Under the pieces are notes generated by a model. The model did no database searches. It saw only the letters and a program-made list of their open reading frames with translations, and was not told the DNA's origin. A stretch of 64,000 bases of DNA, from sequence record PZ386964.1; one strand, given 5' to 3'. The stretch comes from a phage. The position numbers were made by a program, and so were the translations under genes. Positions 3,158-21,138 of this stretch are shown here, one piece after another (position 1 is the first letter of the stretch; every line of letters starts with the position of its first letter).

Positions 3158-4132
3158 TTAAAAATACTCCATATCGGTAATATCACGGAAGCATTTATAA
3201 AGCGCAGAGCGCGGCACGTCAACGATGCCAAAGTTAAAGAATTTATACGTCAAGTATTTGTGGCGATAATTTTCGCGATTATCCCAAAGCATCTTCCGCT
3301 CTGCCATAGGCATTGAACCTGCGGACACACGGAAAGGAATCATCTCACCCTTCTCATCTACATACTTTGGATTGACTACGACAAATGATCCGAGATAACC
3401 CTTGGCAACGAGTCCTTCAGCTTCCTTTGATCGTTTTGTGCGACCAAGCTCATCAATGAACGCTTCGTTGTTATTCTCCATCATCTCGACGAAATCTATG
3501 ATCTGTCCTTCTTCGTCGGTCCACGGCTTGTCTTTCCATACATCACGCGACTTCGGCGTTGCGCGACCATGCTTGTATTTGCCCGTCCACGATTTGCCGT
3601 ATAAGCCTTCATATCCAAGCTGGTCCGCTTCGACTTGCATTGCCGCGTATTGATCCATATTCTCAATGTTTCGGTATTCAAGGGCGCGAAGGAATGGTCT
3701 GTGGCCATGGTCCAAGAGATACTGATTGACCTCAGCAACTCTAGCCCGATAGTTCGCATAACGCTTTTCAAAAGGTAAATCGGGGTCGCTGAAGTCATCA
3801 AACACCCACCATGTAAAGTTAGTTATTGCATCAGTATTCATGCACGCAGTATATGCCTGCTGCATGACGTTCTTGTCATTAGGATTGCCGTCGATGAGTT
3901 CACCATCAAGGCCGTAAATCAAATCGCCCAAGAAAAGGAACTCTTTCTTGATTTGAACGTTTCGCAGCGGCATTCCAGACGTACCCATAGGAAGCTTGTC
4001 ATAAGCCATAGCACGTATGCCATCAACCTTAAATGACAATCCGCAAGGTAACGGAACGTCTTCACCGCGTTCGATGATTTGCTTACGTTGACAGCCTTTC
4101 ATTGGCTTAAGCGCTTTGATCTCTCCTGCCAT
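3158..4132 (-). CDS. ATP-dependent DNA ligase
   Basis: Adenylation motif KVDGIR (KxDGxR), LDGELI and EGLYGK motifs typical of ATP-dependent ligases; ATG at 4132 overlaps the stop of the upstream gene. Confidence 0.75.
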   Translation of the reverse strand: MAGEIKALKPMKGCQRKQIIERGEDVPLPCGLSFKVDGIRAMAYDKLPMGTSGMPLRNVQIKKEFLFLGDLIYGLDGELIDGNPNDKNVMQQAYTACMNTDAITNFTWWVFDDFSDPDLPFEKRYANYRARVAEVNQYLLDHGHRPFLRALEYRNIENMDQYAAMQVEADQLGYEGLYGKSWTGKYKHGRATPKSRDVWKDKPWTDEEGQIIDFVEMMENNNEAFIDELGRTKRSKEAEGLVAKGYLGSFVVVNPKYVDEKGEMIPFRVSAGSMPMAERKMLWDNRENYRHKYLTYKFFNFGIVDVPRSALYKCFRDITDMEYF

Positions 4133-4725
4133 CACTCTTTCCCCTCATTCATTACTTGTTCCAGCGCATAGGCGTAAGCCTGATCAGTCGATTTGATAAA
4201 CGTGCCGTTGTACATGACACCTTTGCGGTCCTTGATGTCTTCGTAGGCCGCTTGCGCACAGTCGGATAAGCGAAGGCCATAATCATGAGCTACGCCGGAA
4301 AGGTAATCGACTGCGACCATGATGGTGACATCAATATCCATGCTCTGATTTTTAGCAATGGCGTCACCAAGCCGTCCGAGAGTCTTTGCCAAGCGAAGGA
4401 TAAACGAGTGAGGGTGGGTACCTTTGTCAGCGCAACCGCCGCCGTTGATGTCTTCGATTTTTGCACCATTTTGCGCGGCAAGGATAGTCAATACAACAAG
4501 ACAATCACCAATGTCGTCCTTGATTGCGGCCTGCAGGTCACAGATGGCCTGCTCTGTATATCCAATTTCAGGGTCAAAGAACACAAGGTCATGGAGTTGA
4601 TCAACGTGGTCGGTTAACTCCCCAAACTCGCTGATAAGCTTCGGGTATTGGTCCTTAAGGTCGCAACCTTGGATGATGTTACGGTCAGAAGCCCACTGGC
4701 GAATGTTTGCATAAATCTGTTTCAT
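4132..4725 (-). CDS. MazG-like nucleoside triphosphate pyrophosphohydrolase (putative)
   Basis: All-alpha-looking protein with an EFGELTDH acidic helix motif resembling MazG-type NTP pyrophosphatases; translationally coupled to neighbours. Confidence 0.45.
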   Translation of the reverse strand: MKQIYANIRQWASDRNIIQGCDLKDQYPKLISEFGELTDHVDQLHDLVFFDPEIGYTEQAICDLQAAIKDDIGDCLVVLTILAAQNGAKIEDINGGGCADKGTHPHSFILRLAKTLGRLGDAIAKNQSMDIDVTIMVAVDYLSGVAHDYGLRLSDCAQAAYEDIKDRKGVMYNGTFIKSTDQAYAYALEQVMNEGKE

Positions 4726-5297: not shown

Positions 5298-6158
5298 TTA
5301 AAACTCTTCTGCGTCGGTCGGAGTTTCATTAACAGGGCCAGCGGCACCGCTTGCTTCTTCCTGCTTGCTGCGGTCAATGTTAACGTTGCCGCCAACTACA
5401 TCGTTGTGGAATGCTTTGGCGACTTCATACAGACCTTTGTCCTGCACCAGACCTTCCAGCTCAAACTTCAGAACTGACCAGGTGTTGCCATCTTTGGACT
5501 GAGACGCAGTACCCATGCGAACGATGTTCATGAAGGTCGGCGGAGTTTTCAGGCCCTGCGGAGTCTGAACTTTCTTCTGCTGCAGCGCGGTCATCAGCAT
5601 GCGAGACGGCTTGATCATGGAAGAAGTCAGAGACAGCATTGCGCTACCAAATTCACCAGTTTCTTCGTTCAACAGAATCACGAAGTGGTTACGTGTATCT
5701 GCGTAGTAAGGTGATTTCTTCTCGTGCACCTTGCCGTTCTCGTCTGGCACAAACACCTTACCGTTGATTTCAACAGCGCGGCCTGCTGCGACTTCTGCAT
5801 CAACGTGCTCTTTGGTGAATTCACCTTTAAAGCCTTTATCGTCGGACTCGCGACCGCCCCAAAGGATGAAGGTGCGTTTGAATGCGCAGGGGATGATCTG
5901 CACACCTTTCTTGCCGTCATACAATTCACCAGTAACGGTGTTGTACAACATGCCAGCTTTTGCGCCAGGAACGTGTTTTGGATCATCTTCGTCGACCATC
6001 GGAGACATCTTTTGCAGCACGACGATAAAAGGAATGGCATAAGCGTCGGCATCGGCACCTTCAAAGCCAGCGCCAAAATCGGTCATGTCGACAAAATCAG
6101 CCATAGCGGACATCTGGGTGTTTTTCACTGCAACTTCGGTAGTTTCTTTCTTAGACAT
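5298..6158 (-). CDS. Putative single-stranded-DNA-binding protein
   Basis: 286 aa ending in an acidic tail with terminal Phe (ETPTDAEEF), reminiscent of T7 gp2.5-type SSBs; sits in the replication block; terminator hairpin downstream. Confidence 0.4.
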   Translation of the reverse strand: MSKKETTEVAVKNTQMSAMADFVDMTDFGAGFEGADADAYAIPFIVVLQKMSPMVDEDDPKHVPGAKAGMLYNTVTGELYDGKKGVQIIPCAFKRTFILWGGRESDDKGFKGEFTKEHVDAEVAAGRAVEINGKVFVPDENGKVHEKKSPYYADTRNHFVILLNEETGEFGSAMLSLTSSMIKPSRMLMTALQQKKVQTPQGLKTPPTFMNIVRMGTASQSKDGNTWSVLKFELEGLVQDKGLYEVAKAFHNDVVGGNVNIDRSKQEEASGAAGPVNETPTDAEEF

Positions 6159-6217: not shown

Positions 6218-6775
6218 TTACTTTTTGCTTTTAGGCAAGGTTATTTTAGCTTCTTTATACTCAAAAACGCTAATATCTTCACTAACTGGATTACCCGCTT
6301 CCAGCTGTTCTTTTACAAATGACTTCAGTGTAGCAGAATGAATGCCTTGTTTCAACGTGGCTTCAACACCATCTTCACGCAGCGCGGCAACAATCTCTTG
6401 CGCTTGCTCGATTTCTTCGCGACCGAACTCAGCCGTGACGCTGGACTTGATCAAGCCGCCGTAACCGTTGTTGACAAGCCAATCGAATACCTTCAATTCA
6501 TTTTCTTTCTTGATTGAAGCATTTACTTTTGACTCGACCTTGATTTTGGTCTTGTCTTCAAGCTTGATTTCGGACACGCCAAGCTCATCCATAACGCCAG
6601 GAAGCAGAACAGTTTTGATTTCACTGATGCGCTGCTTTTGCATATCAGCTTCATCTTCAAGCTCTGTCAAAGCTTCTTGGCGCTCTGCCAATTCCGATAC
6701 TAAGCGCGCAAGACGCTCCTGAATGCTCTCAGGAGCAACCTGCGGCAAATCATCTTCCCAATTAATATTGCTCAT
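6218..6775 (-). CDS. Hypothetical protein with N-terminal coiled coil
   Basis: 185-aa ORF coupled to the upstream gene; charged coiled-coil N-terminus; no confident family assignment. Confidence 0.5.
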   Translation of the reverse strand: MSNINWEDDLPQVAPESIQERLARLVSELAERQEALTELEDEADMQKQRISEIKTVLLPGVMDELGVSEIKLEDKTKIKVESKVNASIKKENELKVFDWLVNNGYGGLIKSSVTAEFGREEIEQAQEIVAALREDGVEATLKQGIHSATLKSFVKEQLEAGNPVSEDISVFEYKEAKITLPKSKK

Positions 6776-12491: not shown

Positions 12492-12518
12492 ACAAAAAGG
12501 CCGCCCATTAGGACGGCC
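12492..12518 (-). terminator. Terminator-like hairpin in the leader of the dnaQ-dnaE pair (possible attenuator)
   Basis: Minus-strand RNA GGCCGUCC-UAAU-GGGCGGCC followed by UUUUUGU, ending only ~10 nt before the AGGAGG site of dnaQ. Confidence 0.45.
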
Positions 12519-12534
12519 ACAGATTCACGATTCG

Positions 12535-13086
12535 TTATACAGTGTACGGAGTACCGTCTTGATTCAAGCGCACGATGAACTTCAAATCGACGCCGATGAT
12601 ATCGCGCGTGTCAAAGATCACGTAATTGTAGCGACGTTGACCAGCAATGTTTGGATTGGTGTGGGAGTCGGTGATGACTTCCTGCGCAACCTGAATGCCT
12701 TCTTCGCTAAAGAACTTACGCCATTCAGCAAGTTCAGCGGCAGTTACGTGCATGCCAAGATGGCTAACCTGATTGTCGTGTGCATCGATATATTCGATGT
12801 TTTCGTTGATCCAGTTGCAGCCCATTGTGTAGTCAAGGATTTCAAGCTCAAGAGGCTTACCAGCGTCGCCATCAGTACCATTGCCAGCCTGATAGTTGAA
12901 GCGCAAGTCAGCTTCATTGGTGCAATCGTCGCGACGACCTTTAAAGTCATCAGCTTCAAATACGCGACCAGTAGCAACAACATGATCATGGAACCATTCT
13001 GTCAGGCCGATTTTAGCCAAGAAATCCTGTGCGCGCTGAGCATCTGGAATTGACAGGGCGATTTGTTCAATTTTAAAATGTGGCAT
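12535..13086 (-). CDS. Hypothetical protein, possibly glyoxalase/VOC-fold
   Basis: 183-aa ORF; weak resemblance to the VOC superfamily (HLGMHV); assignment tentative. Confidence 0.4.
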   Translation of the reverse strand: MPHFKIEQIALSIPDAQRAQDFLAKIGLTEWFHDHVVATGRVFEADDFKGRRDDCTNEADLRFNYQAGNGTDGDAGKPLELEILDYTMGCNWINENIEYIDAHDNQVSHLGMHVTAAELAEWRKFFSEEGIQVAQEVITDSHTNPNIAGQRRYNYVIFDTRDIIGVDLKFIVRLNQDGTPYTV

Positions 13087-13106
13087 TTTGTTTCCTTAAT
13101 TAAATA

Positions 13107-13277
13107 TTATTGATTAATTACTGTGTTGCCTTCGATGGAATAAGTCTCAATGGAACCGACGCGCTCGTGGTTAATCTTTGCGTTTTCGATTCTTATTACT
13201 TCAAATCCAACGCCTTCTTGATCAATCTTCACTTCTGCCACGTCGCCAATCACTTCTACAACAACTTTGATAGTCAT
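13107..13277 (-). CDS. Small hypothetical protein (56 aa), absent from the ORF track
   Basis: ATG-initiated minus-strand ORF (MTIKVVVEVIGDVAEV...) filling the gap between two genes. Confidence 0.3.
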   Translation of the reverse strand: MTIKVVVEVIGDVAEVKIDQEGVGFEVIRIENAKINHERVGSIETYSIEGNTVINQ

Positions 13278-13280
13278 GAT

Positions 13281-13964
13281 TTATTTCCCAAATGGAATAT
13301 CAGTACCAGACATAAAGCGCCATGCGCCCGTAATTAAGATATGGCGAATGAAGTCAGCAATTACTTGCGGCTCAGTTTCCAATCCATTCATCAACGCCTT
13401 TTTCTGGTATTCAGCAGCATACTCAGGAGTCCAGCCGCGAGTCGCGCAAACAGCATCTTCAATCTGTTTGGACATGCCAGTACCGCGTAGCTTGTTAGGA
13501 CTAATAGAGAATACCGTGATCCCGTATTTAGGCGTAAGCTCGTGAGCCATCTGCTTGCTAATCATGAGCGCAGCAGCCTTGGAAGCATTATAACACAAGC
13601 TGGACGTCATAGGAATATGCGCAGCGTTGGAAACGATATTGATCACAAAACCTTTGTTGTCAATAAGACTTTTCAGCGCGGCCTGAGTCGTGTTGACGAA
13701 AGAGAAGGCGTTGGTGTGCATAACGCGATTGAACTCTTCGTAGTTAACATCTTCGAACCAGTTGTTGGAGTTGACGCCAGCGCAGTTGATCAAGCCTTCT
13801 ACATCATATGGGCTTAAAATTTCTTTCATCTGTTTAGCGTCGCGGACGTCATATCCGTATGCTGAATCGATGCCAAGCACGTTATGACCGTAAGCGCCAA
13901 GGGTGTCGAAAATAGATTTACCAAGACCGGAATTGGAACCTGTTACAACAATTACTTTTTTCAT
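13281..13964 (-). CDS. Short-chain dehydrogenase/reductase (SDR) family oxidoreductase
   Basis: N-terminal VTGSNSGLG (TGxxxGxG) and catalytic YNASK (YxxxK) motifs; own promoter upstream. Confidence 0.75.
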   Translation of the reverse strand: MKKVIVVTGSNSGLGKSIFDTLGAYGHNVLGIDSAYGYDVRDAKQMKEILSPYDVEGLINCAGVNSNNWFEDVNYEEFNRVMHTNAFSFVNTTQAALKSLIDNKGFVINIVSNAAHIPMTSSLCYNASKAAALMISKQMAHELTPKYGITVFSISPNKLRGTGMSKQIEDAVCATRGWTPEYAAEYQKKALMNGLETEPQVIADFIRHILITGAWRFMSGTDIPFGK

Positions 13965-14000
13965 TTATTTATCCTTTTTGGACTTCGTTTCGATGAGATA

Positions 14001-14029
14001 AATATAACTCATCGAAACGCACAAGTAAA
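14001..14029 (-). promoter_or_regulatory. Sigma70-like promoter with conserved leader motif and inverted repeat across the -10 (upstream of the SDR gene)
   Basis: Minus strand: -35 TTTACT (plus 14024-14029), 17-bp spacer, -10 TATATT (plus 14001-14006); 12-bp inverted repeat CGTTTCGATGAG / CTCATCGAAACG flanks the -10. Confidence 0.45.
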
Positions 14030-14902
14030 CTATTTATTGAAATTAATATTATGGGTGTTAACAAGACGTTCACACATGGCGCTGTAAACACCATCATCGT
14101 GTATAGAGTCTTCGTGCTTCAGGCCGCTGATTGCAAAGCGTGTAAGCTTGACAATCTTAAGCTCGAACAGATGCCACATGTGGTAGTCTTCCGGCGTTTT
14201 CAACGTTACTCCATTAGGGAAAAGCACCTGCATAACCTGGCCAACCATCACGGCGTTATCGCCATAGACAGCGTTGCGCTCACGGAAGGTTGCTGCCATT
14301 GCATCAAGAATATCGGCGGCAGTTGCCGGAGATTGTTCAACTTTCACAGCCTTAGTCTCTTCTTGCCCTGTTGCACTTGGATCAATTGCTAATTGTTGCA
14401 CCACTTCACCTGCCTTGCAAAGATTAAATGTAAAAGCGATTTTATTTTGAGCAACGGAATTATAATACAATGCTTCATCTTGCATCCGCGCGAGTACGTC
14501 TTGTCGGTCGTCGAATACGTTGATGATTCGATAATCGCCGTGCCGCAATGCGTGCGATAGCCATGCAGATTTCATAATAGTTGATGGACGTTTGTCGCCA
14601 TAGTCTCTCATCTTGATTGTAAATTCATCAAAAGGAAAAACATTGTCCAGACGTTCAAAAGTCGCTTGTCTGTATTTTTCTGGCCTTGCAGTCCAATATT
14701 CAACCGCCTCACCGCGAAGAGATGCCGACTCTACTGCTGATGCAATGTGAGGATAGAACTGATCATAACCAATACCGCTGTGATAGTCATCATAGTCTGA
14801 CAACGGACCTGCCACCTTGATGCGGTCTAAGCGCCAACGGTCATCAAACAGCGTTCCGTCAAGGTCGAATACGTTTAAGATTTCGCTGTTTTTAATACTC
14901 AT
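14030..14902 (-). CDS. HAD-superfamily phosphatase fused to a C-terminal alpha-helical domain (possibly NTP-pyrophosphatase-like)
   Basis: N-terminal FDLDGTL and later VFDDRQD motifs; C-terminal ~140 aa with paired acidic helices (FELKIVKL, HEDSIHDDG). Confidence 0.55.
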   Translation of the reverse strand: MSIKNSEILNVFDLDGTLFDDRWRLDRIKVAGPLSDYDDYHSGIGYDQFYPHIASAVESASLRGEAVEYWTARPEKYRQATFERLDNVFPFDEFTIKMRDYGDKRPSTIMKSAWLSHALRHGDYRIINVFDDRQDVLARMQDEALYYNSVAQNKIAFTFNLCKAGEVVQQLAIDPSATGQEETKAVKVEQSPATAADILDAMAATFRERNAVYGDNAVMVGQVMQVLFPNGVTLKTPEDYHMWHLFELKIVKLTRFAISGLKHEDSIHDDGVYSAMCERLVNTHNINFNK

Positions 14903-15729
14903 CCTTTTGATACTCCATCTTTAGCAACTGGATTGTTGGTGATTGGCATCGCACTCCAAAACTGGATGCGCAACTCTTCTTGCTGTGCCGTTGTATCCAT
15001 CCAATCACGATACCAAGGGCAATGGGCTTTGCCATGACGAGGAAACGCGCATTTACCCATACCGATGCATTGCGGCTGTAATAATGGATTTGCCCACGGG
15101 TGCACCTTGAGGACTTCCGCAACCATTGCGCGGAATACTTCTTGATACTCGCCTTGAGTGCGCGTGCACAAGCGGTTTGACGCCATCTGCTGCAGCGTGC
15201 GCAAGTTGAACTTTGCCATGATATGCGTTTGCATATTAGAAGGCAACACGGCACGTGCATCTTGAATCTCTGCACCAGCCGCGCGAAGTTCTTGATACAA
15301 AGCATCGATAGTCGCCATCGCATCATCCCACTTCTCTGCTAAGTATTGCTTTTGAAGTAAAGATTGGTGCTCTTCATCAGTCCCAAATGCTTCACATTGA
15401 TCAATCAACTCTGGATTTTGGTGTGAGAATGCCTTCGGACGAATCGCATCAAATGCAGACGACTCCTGAGCGCGGCTGGTGCGTTCTTGATATGCGCCTG
15501 TGCGTGTGCGTACCATCTGATGGGTCATGTTCTTTGATACAGCTGTGATATCAAAGATATAGTCCACAAAGTCAAAAGGAGACTTGATTGTATCAAGCAT
15601 GTAGCGCCAATGCTCTTGCTTCTCTGATTCCGTCATCTCAGAGACAGGCTTACCAGTCATGCGCGTGTTCTTTGTTTCCAGCAAAAGGTCAAGTGCATCT
15701 TGGGTGTATCGAATTAATTCAACTTTCAT
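14899..15729 (-). CDS. thyX: Flavin-dependent thymidylate synthase (ThyX)-like protein with a divergent motif
   Basis: Segments THQMVRTRTGAYQERTSR and ARAVLPSNMQTHIMAKFNLRTL align to ThyX motifs (THELIRHRH...SQRY; ARAVLPNATETR), but RHR is replaced by RTR; Cys/His-rich C-terminal extension. Confidence 0.6.
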   Translation of the reverse strand: MKVELIRYTQDALDLLLETKNTRMTGKPVSEMTESEKQEHWRYMLDTIKSPFDFVDYIFDITAVSKNMTHQMVRTRTGAYQERTSRAQESSAFDAIRPKAFSHQNPELIDQCEAFGTDEEHQSLLQKQYLAEKWDDAMATIDALYQELRAAGAEIQDARAVLPSNMQTHIMAKFNLRTLQQMASNRLCTRTQGEYQEVFRAMVAEVLKVHPWANPLLQPQCIGMGKCAFPRHGKAHCPWYRDWMDTTAQQEELRIQFWSAMPITNNPVAKDGVSKG

Positions 15730-15742
15730 TTTAATTGTCCTA

Positions 15743-16189
15743 TTAACGGTAATTCACTAGTTGCTGATCACCAGAGAAGGTGCAATGATAAACGAATTGT
15801 GCGTTATAAAGCAACTGAAAACTTTTCTTTGGTTCACTATTAGAACTCATTGATGTAAAGATTTCTGCACCAGAACGGTTTTCACCAATCAGATTGATAA
15901 AGCCGCCAGTTGAACGAGGCTGGACGAAAGTGAAACGTTGCATCCACGGAGTACGGTTGGCACCTTTCCCTGTGAATCCCTGAATCTGAATATTCAAACC
16001 TTCTTGCTCATTCACACCGATGTAAGTGGTAATCTTCGCACCAGTCGTTGCTGCGGTCTTACCGTCCATCGCTTCGCAATCATAAACAGCGATTGAATCG
16101 GAAGTGCGGATGGCAGCTTCAGTCGCTTCCATATACATGGTGCCGAGAATAGCAGTTGCGGCAAGCGTGATTCCAGTGATTCGTTTCAT
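15743..16189 (-). CDS. Putative secreted protein (signal peptide), unknown function
   Basis: Hydrophobic N-terminus MKRITGITLAATAILG; two cysteines in the predicted mature part; embedded between enzyme genes. Confidence 0.5.
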   Translation of the reverse strand: MKRITGITLAATAILGTMYMEATEAAIRTSDSIAVYDCEAMDGKTAATTGAKITTYIGVNEQEGLNIQIQGFTGKGANRTPWMQRFTFVQPRSTGGFINLIGENRSGAEIFTSMSSNSEPKKSFQLLYNAQFVYHCTFSGDQQLVNYR

Positions 16190-16254
16190 TTTCGTTTCCT
16201 CTATGAGTTCTGCTTCAATGATTAAAGTATACGCCCATTGAAGCAGAAAGCAAA

Positions 16255-17250
16255 TTATTTATTAGCAATATAAGCAAATTTTTGATAGTTATTTGCTTTG
16301 ATGAGTTTTTCAACTTCAACAAGGTCATGAGCGACGTCATCAAGCAAAATGTTGCGCCAGGTAGCAAATCGACCGACACTAAACACGTTCAAATCCATGG
16401 TCAGCTGCAGGAGTAGGGCGTGTCGCAAGTCTTTCGGAATGTCGACAATCTTGCCATATTTCTGGTCGACCTTTTCAACTTCTTCAAGAGCGATGTCGCT
16501 CCATGAGAGGCCAAATGCCGTCAGCACTTCGTCAACTTCTGCGCGCAACTTGATGTCACGGTAACGAGTGATGCCGCCAGCGGCTTCAACTGCAGCTTCA
16601 CTTACGCTGACCAAAGGAATTGTTTCAATGATAAGCGTGTCACCAGTAATTGATGCGCGGTAAGTTCTGACGGAGTAGTCAGGGAAGTAAATTGTCTGAT
16701 ACAAATCACACTTACGTTTAATCTTAAAGCGGTAAACGCGAATGTTTGCTTTATCAAATGAGAAATCAAGCTTTTGATCAATTCCAGCAAGCTTCATCAT
16801 GACTGGCAGCGGCGACGTGTTGATGATTGGCGTCTCGCTATAGCCGCAAAGAGTATCAACCGGAGTATTAAAGAATATGCGGTCACCCAGTTTGTCGACA
16901 AGCTGATCATAAAAGTCATCAGGTGCAATATAACGCGTTGCAGTTTTAAGCTTCATGATTGAACGACTGCCAAACTGATTGGTGACCTTCATGGAATACA
17001 TATTGGCAAGGTTGATTGGGCAATGGTCGTGATAGTAGTTGCCGCGAAAATACACAGCCTTGTCAACTGTCACGGCCTTAAAGGGGATTCCGGTAATACG
17101 GCTTACTTCTTCGCCGCGAAAGCGTAGCAGCGCCTTGTGCTGTTGCGCTCGTTCCCCTGCTTCGTACACAATAGAGTTCGGGAAGTGACACGCGGTGATA
17201 AGTCCTGCCAGTCCGCCGCCGATAATCATTACAGGTTGTTTCATGTTCAT
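16255..17250 (-). CDS. FAD/NAD(P)-binding oxidoreductase
   Basis: N-terminal dinucleotide-binding motif VMIIGGGLAGL; ~331 aa; specific family not resolvable by eye. Confidence 0.6.
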   Translation of the reverse strand: MNMKQPVMIIGGGLAGLITACHFPNSIVYEAGERAQQHKALLRFRGEEVSRITGIPFKAVTVDKAVYFRGNYYHDHCPINLANMYSMKVTNQFGSRSIMKLKTATRYIAPDDFYDQLVDKLGDRIFFNTPVDTLCGYSETPIINTSPLPVMMKLAGIDQKLDFSFDKANIRVYRFKIKRKCDLYQTIYFPDYSVRTYRASITGDTLIIETIPLVSVSEAAVEAAGGITRYRDIKLRAEVDEVLTAFGLSWSDIALEEVEKVDQKYGKIVDIPKDLRHALLLQLTMDLNVFSVGRFATWRNILLDDVAHDLVEVEKLIKANNYQKFAYIANK

Positions 17251-17327
17251 TTGTCCTTTGTGGGTGATATGAGAAGTATAATAGCTAAATTATTTTACAG
17301 CAACAAGTCATTTCTATTTAGTACAGA

Positions 17328-17357
17328 CGAAAAAAAGACCCACAACAAGTGTGGGTC
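17328..17357 (-). terminator. Rho-independent terminator after the KEA-rich protein gene
   Basis: Minus-strand hairpin GACCCACA-loop-UGUGGGUC followed by a run of seven U. Confidence 0.65.
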
Positions 17358-17385
17358 AATTACCGCTATATAACCGTCCTACAGG

Positions 17386-18231
17386 TTATTCCGCTTGATC
17401 ACCGTCTTCGGCATCGTCGTTGGATTCAACATCGACAAACTCGATGTGGCCCATCTCTTCCAGCTTGCTCAGGTAGGAGCGAACGGAAGCGCCAAACAGT
17501 TGATCTTTAACTTTCTCTCCCAGCTCATCGATAGACTGCGCCACGCCAACTTCGCCTTCTTTGATCGCCGCCAGAACGCGCCCACGGGTGGAGTGCTCTT
17601 GCGGCTGGCTCAGGCCATTGCCAGTGTAGATGAAGTGAGTAGCTTTTGCACGACGCTGACCGTTTGCCTTTTTAGCAGCCTTGCGCTCTGCGATGGCTTT
17701 GCGACGTTCTTCAGCTTCTTTCTTACGCTGTTCTTTCTGCTGTTCTGCAGCTTCTTTCGCCGCAATCTTAGCAGCTTCACGCTCTGCCTTGCGTTTCGCT
17801 TTAGCTTCTTCTTTGGCCTTCTCTTTTTCGGCCTTCGCTGCAGCACGGGCCTGATCACGTTCGGCCTTTTTCGCCGCAGCTTGTTCAGCTTTCAGGCGCT
17901 TGGCTTCTTCTTTCGCCTTTGCCTTTTCAATTTCTTTAGCGGCTTTAGCGGCTTCACGCTCTGCCTTCTTAGCGGCAGCCTTTTCTGCACGCTCTTTAGC
18001 TTTCTTAGCTGCTTCTTCAGCACGCTTCTGAGCCTTCTCATCAGCAGCTTGCTTGCGTTTCAGCGCAGCTTCTTCACGCTTGGCTTGTTTTTCCTGCTCA
18101 CGCTTCTGGCGTTTTTCTTCGGCTTCTTTCTTTTTAGCCAGGCGTTTTTCTTCAGCCACGCGACGACGTTCTGCTGCGGCTGCTTGTTTTTCTTCTTTAG
18201 ATAATACTTTGATTGCTTCGGCCATATTCAC
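17386..18231 (-). CDS. Lysine/alanine/glutamate-rich low-complexity protein with C-terminal globular (possibly winged-helix) domain
   Basis: ~200 aa of KEA repeats (AAKKAEREAAKAAKEIEKAKAKEEAK) followed by ...VRSYLSKLEEMGHIEFVD and an acidic tail; terminator downstream. Confidence 0.55.
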   Translation of the reverse strand: MNMAEAIKVLSKEEKQAAAAERRRVAEEKRLAKKKEAEEKRQKREQEKQAKREEAALKRKQAADEKAQKRAEEAAKKAKERAEKAAAKKAEREAAKAAKEIEKAKAKEEAKRLKAEQAAAKKAERDQARAAAKAEKEKAKEEAKAKRKAEREAAKIAAKEAAEQQKEQRKKEAEERRKAIAERKAAKKANGQRRAKATHFIYTGNGLSQPQEHSTRGRVLAAIKEGEVGVAQSIDELGEKVKDQLFGASVRSYLSKLEEMGHIEFVDVESNDDAEDGDQAE

Positions 18232-20055: not shown

Positions 20056-21138
20056 ATGGCTAGTTTAAGAGAAGAAGCAAAAATAATCGAAGAGTTTTTA
20101 ACAGAACTCCAAAGAGGCATTCCAGAAGATGAGCGCGTCATGACGGTGTTTGCGCCTGAAGCAACGGTACAGACTGACGAGCGCGGCAAGAAGATTAACA
20201 GCAGCTTCTGGCCTAAGCCTTGGAAGTTGGGAAAGCCGCTGATGCAACATCAGAACGGTTACGCCTGCATAAGTTCAATGCGTAAGTCTCCCAACCCAAA
20301 GACGGGTGAGATGCGATACTGGCGTACAGAGTCGGCCTTTGGTCACGGCATGGCGATGATGGTCGACGACATCGGTCACGGTAAAGGGTCCAAAGGCGAT
20401 TTAGATTTGGAATTCTTTTTTGAGCGACTGAAGCCGACTGTCATCGTCGAGACTTCACCGAACAACCACCAGCTTTGGTACTTCTTTAAAGAACCGATTG
20501 ACCATCTTATTCAGTTCAAAGCGTTCCTTGGGTCTTTCGTTAACATGGTACTCAAGAAGGGCGGCGACAACACGATTAAAGACGTAACGCGCGTGGGCCG
20601 TGTTCCTGGGTGCATCAACAACAAGCGTGTGACTCACGACGGCCCCTATAAATATGTCGATGAGAACGGCGACCCGTTCCGCTGCCGACTTGTCCATGCA
20701 GACTACTCATTGCGCTACACCATCGAAGACATTTGTCAGGCATTTGGCTTTCACGTCGTCATGCCGCAAAAGCGTGAGATTCAAATTGACGTCGATGAAT
20801 ACAAGTATGATGCTGTTTGGTATAAAATAGCCCAGCAGATTCTATCGCGCAGCAAAATGGGTGAAGGGTCTGATGGTGACGTCATCGAGAACATGTCAGG
20901 CAAGTGCCGCATAATCTGTCCTTGGGGTGAAGAACACACCAACGGCGACCCGTATGGCGCTTACTTTCGCGGCCCTATTCCTGGTGCAGAACATGAGTTT
21001 GTGTTCGGTTGCGCCCACGACTGTCACCGGAAAGGGGAAGGCAAGAAAGGTTGGACTGCTTTTGTTGAAGCAATCGTCATGCCTTATATTGAGAATCAAC
21101 TTGACATGATAAATCGTCGTGCAGGTGGCATAAAATAG
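20056..21138 (+). CDS. Putative DNA primase / primase-polymerase-like replication initiation protein
   Basis: Motifs MVDDIGHGKG and VIVETSPNNHQLWYFF resemble primase-polymerase catalytic motifs; C-terminal Cys/His cluster; upstream of a P-loop helicase. Confidence 0.4.
   Translation: MASLREEAKIIEEFLTELQRGIPEDERVMTVFAPEATVQTDERGKKINSSFWPKPWKLGKPLMQHQNGYACISSMRKSPNPKTGEMRYWRTESAFGHGMAMMVDDIGHGKGSKGDLDLEFFFERLKPTVIVETSPNNHQLWYFFKEPIDHLIQFKAFLGSFVNMVLKKGGDNTIKDVTRVGRVPGCINNKRVTHDGPYKYVDENGDPFRCRLVHADYSLRYTIEDICQAFGFHVVMPQKREIQIDVDEYKYDAVWYKIAQQILSRSKMGEGSDGDVIENMSGKCRIICPWGEEHTNGDPYGAYFRGPIPGAEHEFVFGCAHDCHRKGEGKKGWTAFVEAIVMPYIENQLDMINRRAGGIK

Follow-up and report, generated by a model that had tools for sequence, protein, structure and literature searches.

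The closest described counterparts of the locus considered here are found in the Pseudomonas phages F8 and 14-1 (genus Pbunavirus, PB1-like), whose virion DNA contains thymidine derivatives of mass 362 (F8) and 390 (14-1) as detected by liquid chromatography-mass spectrometry (bioRxiv 10.1101/2025.03.31.646159). These derivatives are sugar-like and replace about one quarter of T, at TG sites; the DNA of both phages resists enzymes with TG in their recognition site, and known modification genes are lacking according to the authors (Yee et al. 2025). Modification genes were not assigned in the later Pbunavirus papers that we searched either. Wifcevirus, a genus of E. coli and Shigella myoviruses with genomes of 66-72 kb, is distant kin of Pbunavirus. 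Here we analyse an enzyme island in a 64,000-nt stretch of phage DNA (sequence record PZ386964.1), referred to as the window, which means this whole stretch. The island is a seven-gene unit on the minus strand (12535-17250) that encodes, among other proteins, an FAD-type flavoprotein, a ThyX-like flavoenzyme and a fusion of a HAD phosphatase with a four-helix domain. On balance we favour the view, by a small degree, that it is the biosynthetic locus, or the conserved core of one, for a thymidine hypermodification that protects TG/CA; by analogy, and with the same cautious preference, this modification would be of the kind present in F8 and 14-1.

The window derives from an E. coli myovirus of the genus Wifcevirus that is about 97% identical to phage FEC19; positions 13000-17400 align at 94-98% identity to about 29 Wifcevirus genomes, with FEC19 at the top (97.4%). 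The likeness to F8 and 14-1 lies in their distant kinship, in the layout of the replication block and in the flavoprotein, ThyX-like and HAD/four-helix genes, which both Pbunavirus phages hold in the same order, between the gene of a Dda-like helicase and those of the DnaQ exonuclease and Pol III alpha. Identities to the F8 proteins are 41% for the flavoprotein (gp65), 48% for the ThyX-like protein (gp59), and 28% and 47% for the N- and C-terminal parts of the HAD fusion (gp57). F8 and 14-1 represent a short form of the cluster from which the genes of a short-chain dehydrogenase (SDR) and a VOC protein are missing, whereas Wifcevirus adds these two, a 56-aa open reading frame (ORF) and a putative secreted protein.

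We collected 52 related viral loci at which the sequence continues for 7 kb or more downstream of the flavoprotein gene; they take in a Cronobacter podovirus, a Rhizobium jumbo phage and contigs binned with Bacilli and Dehalococcoidia. A ThyX-like gene followed the flavoprotein gene in every case, with a median gap of 388 bp. The HAD and four-helix domains were found at 48 loci each, and a gene for a DnaQ-like exonuclease came next at 50. SDR and VOC genes were present at 33 and 34 loci, respectively, and at 51 of the 52 there were both or neither. The order is flavoprotein, ThyX-like protein, HAD phosphatase, optional SDR and VOC proteins, exonuclease; it was also found on contigs binned with Bacilli, Desulfocapsa, Elusimicrobiota and Dehalococcoidia, and the trio of flavoprotein, ThyX-like and HAD genes is syntenic in phages of Pseudomonas, Serratia, Pantoea, Xanthomonas, Burkholderia, Rhizobium and Cronobacter. 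In the Cronobacter podovirus Ss1 the flavoprotein/ThyX-like pair lies directly upstream of the exonuclease and Pol III alpha genes, and in a Rhizobium jumbo phage this set of genes is found in unchanged order, with other ORFs interspersed. Judged from this distribution, the conserved functional unit consists of the two flavoenzymes and the phosphatase fusion, with SDR and VOC as an optional pair. A first-pass annotation of this DNA had counted both the SDR gene and a signal-peptide gene as members of the set. The former falls outside the conserved core, as it is missing from the Pbunavirus phages with proven modification, and the latter turned out to be lineage-specific (4 of the 52 loci, all Wifcevirus).

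If T is modified in TG, protection extends to every site that includes TG or adjoins it, which leaves selection to act on the remaining sites only. Site composition in the window was analysed on this premise. Twelve of the 64 palindromic hexamers are absent, with 5-18 copies expected of each: CGATCG, AGATCT, CTCGAG, GCTAGC, CGGCCG, TCCGGA, GGATCC, CGTACG, ACCGGT, GGGCCC, CCCGGG and CCTAGG. All of these belong to the 48 palindromes without TG, as against none of the 16 TG-containing ones, and the 16 most avoided palindromes include none with TG. TG palindromes were less depleted under third-order (Mann-Whitney p = 0.001), first-order (p = 0.015) and fourth-order (p = 0.003) Markov models. GAGCTC and GCCGGC are represented by one copy each, and AAGCTT (HindIII, 53 copies) is about twofold over-represented, as is TGATCA, with 49 copies versus zero for AGATCT, CGATCG and GGATCC. 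Moreover, all 109 GATC sites read TGATC on at least one strand, with T occupying 72% of the flanks versus 31% in the background (p = 2e-36); these sites are spread across the whole window, several coding phases and intergenic DNA. A 5' T on at least one strand likewise flanks EcoRI (13 of 14, the exception lying at 20410), EcoRV (5 of 5), GACGTC (13 of 14) and GCGCGC sites (15 of 15), and the same T-flank result was obtained for the Wifcevirus isolates Bas98 and Bas99. A 5' T is lacking at 12 of 26 SalI and 10 of 25 HpaI sites. Further site counts in the window are 27 for PstI, 21 for PvuII, 17 for ApaLI, 26 for FspI, 9 for NdeI, 49 for BclI, 18 for BsrGI, 109 for MboI/Sau3AI, 28 for DraI, 38 for SspI, 33 for AclI and 32 for PsiI. 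Of all T, a fraction of 0.263 precedes a G.

Lambda and the restriction-sensitive phage Bas97 served as negative controls: a 5' T is missing from 56 of the 116 GATC sites in the former and from 15 of 41 in the latter, and the comparison of TG with non-TG palindromes in lambda gave p = 0.43. The positive control F8 showed the same direction as the window (palindromes, p = 0.04), with all GTCGAC and GACGTC sites T-flanked. Of 51 loci outside Wifcevirus that carry the module, 25 show significant enrichment of T in front of palindromes with G as first base, which is the highest number among the 16 combinations of flank and first base (the next reached 13 and 11 loci); this statistic is supportive, not exclusive. 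In Ss1, which carries the trio in an unrelated virion backbone, 20 of 20 GATC sites are T-flanked. Altogether, these patterns make it likely that a TG-linked DNA modification is present in the window phage.

Published restriction phenotypes agree with this signature. The BASEL paper describes Wifcevirus isolates as resisting restriction with "no known genome protection mechanism": Bas98-101 resist EcoKI, EcoCFT_I, EcoCFT_II, EcoRI and EcoRV, and are very sensitive to EcoP1_I only. We recounted the sites in the genomes of Bas97, Bas98 and Bas99; set against the S2 table of that paper, our counts match for AGACC, GAATTC, GATATC, the EcoKI site and GAGN7GTCA. For the type III system EcoCFT_II, whose recognition sequence is given there in a figure only, we deduced CACAG, the sole pentamer that matches the counts in the three genomes (115, 93 and 92). 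TG is contained in the sites of EcoKI (AACN6GTGC), EcoCFT_I (GAGN7GTCA, complement TGAC) and EcoCFT_II (complement CTGTG), and EcoRI and EcoRV sites in these genomes almost always lie beside a 5' T. Of the sites tested, that of EcoP1_I (AGACC/GGTCT) is the one that lacks TG, and no other system restricts Bas98-101; this accounts for the exceptional position of EcoP1_I in the BASEL paper. TG-linked protection is thus indicated in F8 by restriction digests and in Wifcevirus, indirectly, by the sequence signature together with in vivo restriction phenotypes from published efficiency-of-plating data; the literature searched, including the characterisation paper of vB_Eco4M-7, contained no restriction digests of Wifcevirus DNA. 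Phage vB_Eco4M-7 itself has already been reconstructed from synthetic DNA (PMC11074155).

The ThyX-like gene is labelled thymidylate synthase in public records. Its product belongs to the ThyX fold (PF02511, 102.4 bits against a cutoff of 24.8), and a phmmer search of structures retrieved T. maritima and other ThyX at an E value of only about 3e-4. Its score against the thyX equivalog model TIGR02170 (78.3 bits) stays under the cutoff of 87.9. An alignment was made of 67 members of the family and ThyX of T. maritima, whose numbering is used here. The dUMP/FAD-binding residues Q75, R78, R80, R90, R147, R165 and R174 were invariant in all 67, and the equivalent of N163 was essentially so. His53 was replaced by Ile, and His79 of the RHR motif by Thr, Ser or Asn, in every member; Tyr91 was lost in all 67, being Ala or Val in 65, and further family swaps are His59 to Phe, Arg74 to His or Gln, Ser88 to Thr or Ser, and His178 to Arg. 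The window protein, reading I48, H70, T75, T84 and A87 in place of H53, R74, H79, S88 and Y91, does not carry the ThyX signature residues His53, His79, Ser88 and Tyr91. Canonical ThyX uses His53 to stack against the pterin of the folate; this residue also pairs with Tyr91, and mutation of Tyr91 makes flavin oxidation about 1000-fold slower (PMC11940539). By this alignment, the window protein is a non-standard ThyX, with the nucleotide/flavin side of the active site kept and the carbon-donor side rebuilt. It further differs in that a second flavoprotein always neighbours its gene, whereas canonical ThyX needs no partner, and in a four-cysteine extension found in about half of the family. The four cysteines (C188, C221, C227 and C237 in the window protein, three of them in the C-terminal extension) are jointly present in 35 of the 67 relatives, the window protein included, whereas the remaining 32 have none of the four, each being replaced or missing; this suggests a metal or Fe-S site in one sub-clade. 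Papers that tie ThyX-like genes to hypermodification were absent from the literature searched.

The partner flavoprotein belongs to a family of about 1950 members at 90% clustering, nearly all on phage-sized contigs. A scan of 185,579 species (one genome each) gave only six hits, all on contigs of metagenome-assembled genomes and of phage-like size. In the Mansfield record the flavoprotein is annotated as UDP-galactopyranose mutase (UGM) and an HHpred match to 1I8T is reported, which was not reproduced here: in our fold comparison UGM came out only slightly ahead of PPO and MAO, no Pfam family (GLF included) matched up to an E value of 10, and hhalign with Glf of E. coli K-12 aligned 20 residues only, at the Rossmann N-terminus, with a probability of 3%. 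The protein is also shorter than UGMs (331 aa versus 367-510 aa). With neither a GLF match in Pfam nor a Glf alignment longer than 20 residues, its identity as a UGM is not confirmed at sequence level.

The third core protein combines a HAD_PNKP domain (34.4 bits, cutoff 27.6) with a C-terminal domain of about 100 residues, joined by a low-complexity linker. The HAD motifs are complete (DxDxT and motifs II-IV), with D13, D15, T71, K111, D131 and D132 invariant in 40 sequences, and domain searches found no kinase domain in the fusion; the public label "polynucleotide kinase/phosphorylase" (PQ850618, NC_048073) is a propagated PHROG label. The C-terminal domain, modelled as a four-helix bundle (pLDDT 95), is encoded by 14030-14332 and remains about 90-99% identical in proteins with a full-length identity of 51-59% to the window protein. 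It has 2108 cluster representatives; in nearly all of the best 150 of these it is C-terminal, and some of these 150 proteins are only 106-200 aa long. Assignments of this domain as MazG-like or as NMAD1/DUF1599 were considered and are unsupported, the sole trace being a weak DUF6378 match in F8 gp57. Between F8 and 14-1, gp57 is 80% identical, with an indel in the linker.

The thymidine hypermodifications of phages phiW-14, M6, ViI, SP10 and PaMx11 offer a wider comparison. There, too, C5-methyl-substituted thymidines partly replace T and block restriction (PMC5889632, PMC8989533), the tailoring enzymes are encoded in a cluster near replication genes, and a flavin oxidoreductase of PaMx11 acts on DNA. 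Those phages use a ThyA-type dUMP hydroxymethylase, a 5-hydroxymethyldeoxyuridine (5-hmdU) DNA kinase and aGPT-Pplase, none of which was detected here, and their pathways append amino acids or polyamines, whereas the group appended in the relatives of the window phage is sugar-like. Phage thymine dioxygenases (5mYOX) and the base J pathway resemble the present case in modifying thymine post-replicatively and with sequence selectivity, one phage enzyme preferring NTG (PMC13229309), but they employ Fe(II)/2-oxoglutarate enzymes, some of them ParB-dependent. To cover the remainder of the window, about 30 other non-structural ORFs were compared with Pfam or PHROGs, and two with PDB sequences. This yielded replication genes, a VapE-like primase/helicase domain, a MazG-like nucleotide pyrophosphatase and two Pam3-type families; several scanned ORFs of 180-286 aa stay uncharacterised. 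Neither in the island nor among these ORFs did Pfam or PHROG matches reveal a ThyA-type hydroxymethylase, 5-hmdU DNA kinase, aGPT-Pplase, TET/JBP dioxygenase or glycosyltransferase, and the scanned ORFs gave no ParB match. As a set, the enzymes have nothing in common with those of the characterised thymidine pathways, of T4-type hydroxymethylation and glycosylation or of base J synthesis. The resemblance to known hypermodification gene sets that the first-pass annotation had seen was accordingly not recovered. Its proposal of a modification module beyond routine dNTP supply fared better, since modified relatives share the core, the genome bears the TG signature and the ThyX residues are lost; the link from these observations to the operon is one that we infer.

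This link is drawn because the trio is common to both lineages in which TG-linked protection has been shown or inferred, because the signature extends to an unrelated virion backbone with the trio (Ss1), because the ORF scan provided only the MazG-like pyrophosphatase as a further enzyme-family match, and because a remodelled ThyX site with an obligatory flavoprotein partner is ill-explained by dTMP supply. A precedent exists in PaMx11 gp47, an FAD oxidoreductase whose substrate is a hypermodified base within DNA (PMC8989533). In the pathway we envisage, the ThyX-like enzyme and the flavoprotein would activate C5 or the C5-methyl group of a uracil or thymine nucleotide by covalent or hydride flavin chemistry, and the flavoenzymes would join the activated carbon to a sugar-derived, probably sugar-phosphate, unit, from which the HAD phosphatase would then strip the phosphate. 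In "long" clusters of the Wifcevirus type, the SDR and VOC proteins might process the appended polyol or sugar further, by reduction, isomerisation or some other tailoring step, and therefore the final adduct in Wifcevirus may differ from that in Pbunavirus. Our confidence in these mechanistic details is much less than in the assignment of the locus.

Several points weigh against this assignment. The retained dUMP/FAD arginines suggest a mononucleotide substrate, whereas the TG pattern needs a step on DNA, and no TG-reading protein, glycosyltransferase, kinase or dioxygenase was identified in the island or the scanned ORFs. For the four-helix domain, which is more strongly conserved than any other piece of the cluster, no relative could be recognised. 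The cluster sits in the replication block, where an ordinary ThyX would sit too. Flank enrichment beside palindromes was also observed, in weaker form, for other base combinations and in lambda, and the signature is silent on which base of TG/CA is altered. In Bas99, 2 of 19 EcoRI sites lack a 5' T, yet the phage is reported as not sensitive, and a chemical analysis of Wifcevirus DNA was not found in the literature searched. Furthermore, the adducts of F8 and 14-1 differ though their core enzymes are 80-97% identical, and therefore some determinant must lie elsewhere or in the host. The assignment from operon to modification is itself inferred.

The most serious alternative is ordinary nucleotide supply, in which the ThyX-like enzyme makes dTMP, the flavoprotein acts as a flavin or NAD(P)H redox helper, the HAD phosphatase trims nucleotide pools and the TG-linked protection, if real, comes from other genes. 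The Thy1 fold and conserved dUMP/FAD-binding arginines of the ThyX-like enzyme, the position of the cluster between helicase and polymerase genes, the frequency of ThyX in phages and the names given in public records would all fit. Such a role accords poorly with the loss of His53 and Tyr91 throughout the 67 members and with a score under the equivalog cutoff; nor would a partnerless enzyme such as canonical ThyX call for a flavoprotein at 52 and a HAD/four-helix protein at 48 of 52 loci. SDR and VOC proteins have no role in dTMP synthesis, and the scan of about 30 further ORFs offered no other candidate modification enzymes to which protection could be assigned. We regard this explanation as unlikely, although it deserves more weight than the two that follow.

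That the genes instead serve host metabolism or takeover, with a FabG-like enzyme working on lipids, a glyoxalase-like one in detoxification, a UGM-like one on O-antigen galactofuranose and a secreted moron, seems improbable. This reading could draw on the Bas98 and Bas99 records, which tag the SDR as "auxiliary metabolic gene and host takeover; moron", on the Mansfield label of the flavoprotein, and on the fact that glf is encoded in the O16 antigen cluster of K-12 and that these phages need O16 antigen. The trio is, however, syntenic across many hosts and on contigs from unrelated phyla, so that it is not bound to any single envelope chemistry; the alignment to E. coli Glf is limited to the Rossmann N-terminus, and the SDR scores far under all FabG cutoffs. 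A host-envelope role of the UGM-like gene was rejected in view of its host-independent synteny with the ThyX-like gene. Slightly less probable still is counter-defence at the level of RNA or nucleotides, by which a 3'-phosphatase of PNKP type would heal cleaved tRNA and the flavoenzymes would modify RNA uridines or destroy signalling nucleotides. The HAD domain does fall in the polynucleotide kinase-phosphatase family, and the flavin/folate uracil methylases TrmFO and MnmEG act on RNA (cited in PMC8989533); but a kinase domain is lacking, none of the ORFs scanned matched an RNA ligase, as their sole ligase, related records list an ATP-dependent DNA ligase, and both the TG-linked DNA signature and the restriction phenotypes would be left unexplained.

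If the locus does direct TG-linked hypermodification, the pairing of its flavoenzymes permits a more daring proposal. The two textbook enzymes in which a carbon electrophile is bound by the N5 of reduced flavin as a covalent iminium are ThyX and UGM. It is conceivable that the two flavoenzymes run a covalent-flavin route to C5-substituted DNA pyrimidines that has not been described before, and we rate it a long shot. In one version, an aldose or sugar phosphate would replace the methylene donor, and a UGM-style flavin-N5 iminium would be passed to the ThyX-style site, which is the one without the folate-stacking His and the Tyr. In a second version, the last step of ThyX would be reversed on thymine, giving an electrophilic 5-methylene intermediate that could be trapped by a sugar hydroxyl. 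Either version, if true, would amount to thymine hypermodification without ThyA-type hydroxymethylases, Fe(II)/2-oxoglutarate dioxygenases or glycosyltransferases. The mass of the F8 derivative equals dU (228) plus aldopentose (150) plus 2H minus H2O (362), and that of the 14-1 derivative dU (228) plus aldohexose (180) minus H2O (390); ethers of 5-hydroxymethyl-dU fit these masses equally well, so the arithmetic does not discriminate between structures.

As a type of system, phage gene clusters for the hypermodification of a DNA base as a shield from restriction are known, and the chemistry of the Pbunavirus modification has already been published. What is new is the candidate gene set with its wide distribution, a ThyX-like family that fails the ThyX signature, the sequence evidence for TG-linked protection in Wifcevirus and the resolution of the EcoP1_I/EcoCFT_II discrepancy; there is a modest chance that the flavoenzyme chemistry is categorically new. 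In phage therapy of Pseudomonas aeruginosa, those of the genus Pbunavirus belong to the phages most in use, and their hypermodification was found only in 2025. The present analysis yields a short list of candidate genes conserved across hundreds of phages, extends TG-linked protection to the Wifcevirus phages of E. coli and accounts for the puzzle in the BASEL data that five systems are resisted and EcoP1_I is not. If the assignment is true, the pathway would operate without the known hypermodification enzymes and involve new flavin chemistry on nucleobases, and its genes would provide a marker to predict phages that escape restriction and those that are targets of modification-dependent nucleases (END family).

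The five genes named in the first-pass annotation are all present, adjacent and co-oriented on the minus strand (Table 1). The only convincing terminators on this strand lie at 17357-17337 and 12518-12499, and the unit therefore also takes in the VOC gene and the 56-aa ORF, which that annotation had missed. Both terminators, the former of which is the 5' boundary of the island, are strong and are annotated at the same sites in the Mansfield record. The promoter that had originally been proposed is tentative: the weak match listed in Table 1 is of a kind no commoner here than in shuffled sequence. Within the unit, the stop codon of the ThyX-like gene and the start of the HAD gene overlap by 4 nt.

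Table 1. Features of the enzyme island and its boundaries, in the direction of transcription (positions in the window)
Feature	Coordinates	Strand	Details
Intrinsic terminator, ends the upstream unit of the K-rich protein	17337..17357	-	8-bp stem, 5 GC pairs, then TTTTTTT
Sigma-70-like promoter match, weak	17289..17316	-	TAGAAA-16-AATAAT, 9/12 matches
FAD-type flavoprotein, 331 aa, core	16255..17250	-	Probable UGM/PPO/amine-oxidase fold; virus-restricted
Signal-peptide-like protein, 148 aa	15743..16189	-	Basic, then hydrophobic N-terminus
ThyX-like flavoenzyme, 276 aa, core	14899..15729	-	Thy1, 3.4e-29
HAD (PNKP-type) phosphatase with C-terminal four-helix domain, 290 aa, core	14030..14902	-	HAD_PNKP
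Classical SDR, 227 aa, accessory tailoring candidate	13281..13964	-	adh_short, 2.6e-31
56-aa ORF	13107..13277	-	ORF; coding sequence in the Mansfield, Bas98 and Bas99 records
VOC/glyoxalase-like protein, 183 aa, accessory	12535..13086	-	Glyoxalase_4, E 0.0039; InterPro IPR029068 in the Mansfield record
Intrinsic terminator, closes the island just before the DnaQ-like exonuclease gene	12499..12518	-	8-bp stem, 7 GC pairs, TTTTT

Among the accessory proteins, the SDR has the features of a classical member of its family (adh_short, 109 bits), with the TGxxxGxG motif (T8-G15) and the N85/S112/Y125/K129 tetrad intact in its translation; it scores far below the cutoff of every named NCBIfam subfamily, those of FabG included, and the label "FabG-like 3-oxoacyl-ACP reductase, moron/AMG" in PQ850618 and NC_048073 is a propagated PHROG label. 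The Glyoxalase_4 match of the VOC protein lies below the Pfam cutoff, and searches of PDB and NCBIfam returned no relative. The 148-aa signal-peptide-like protein, without a match in Pfam, PHROG or NCBIfam, is probably a local insertion outside the pathway. The 56-aa ORF weakly resembles F8 gp58 (E 0.006). Net charge and pI of the island proteins gave no hint of DNA binding.

The gene of the MazG-like nucleotide pyrophosphatase (4132..4725, minus strand; phrog_1992, 6.6e-63, no Pfam match) lies far from the island, adjoins the DNA ligase gene and has a counterpart in F8 (gp49). Its product could shape the dUTP/dTTP pool for the pathway, a membership that is speculative. The two Pam3-type families, both recent additions to Pfam, are represented by adjacent minus-strand genes, one matching Pam3_Gp34 (5298-6158, 4e-86) and the other DUF7307/Pam3 gp33-like (6218-6775, 6e-37); the pair has no PDB relatives and is conserved in the PB1-like replication arm. 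In the comparison of F8 with 14-1, gp70 is 56.5% identical, while most of its neighbour genes reach 92-100% and four 78-89%; gp70 shows a weak zinc-finger-like CXXCXGXG match and has no counterpart in the window. Upstream, the island adjoins the gene of a Lys/Ala/Glu-rich protein of 281 aa (17386-18231, minus strand), which forms a terminator-bounded unit of its own and is named "TolA protein" in records (phrog_4765). Its C-terminal part is conserved in F8 gp66, the gene stands beside the island in PB1-like myoviruses (25 of the 52 loci), and peptides of an ortholog have been seen by mass spectrometry among phage lysate proteins.

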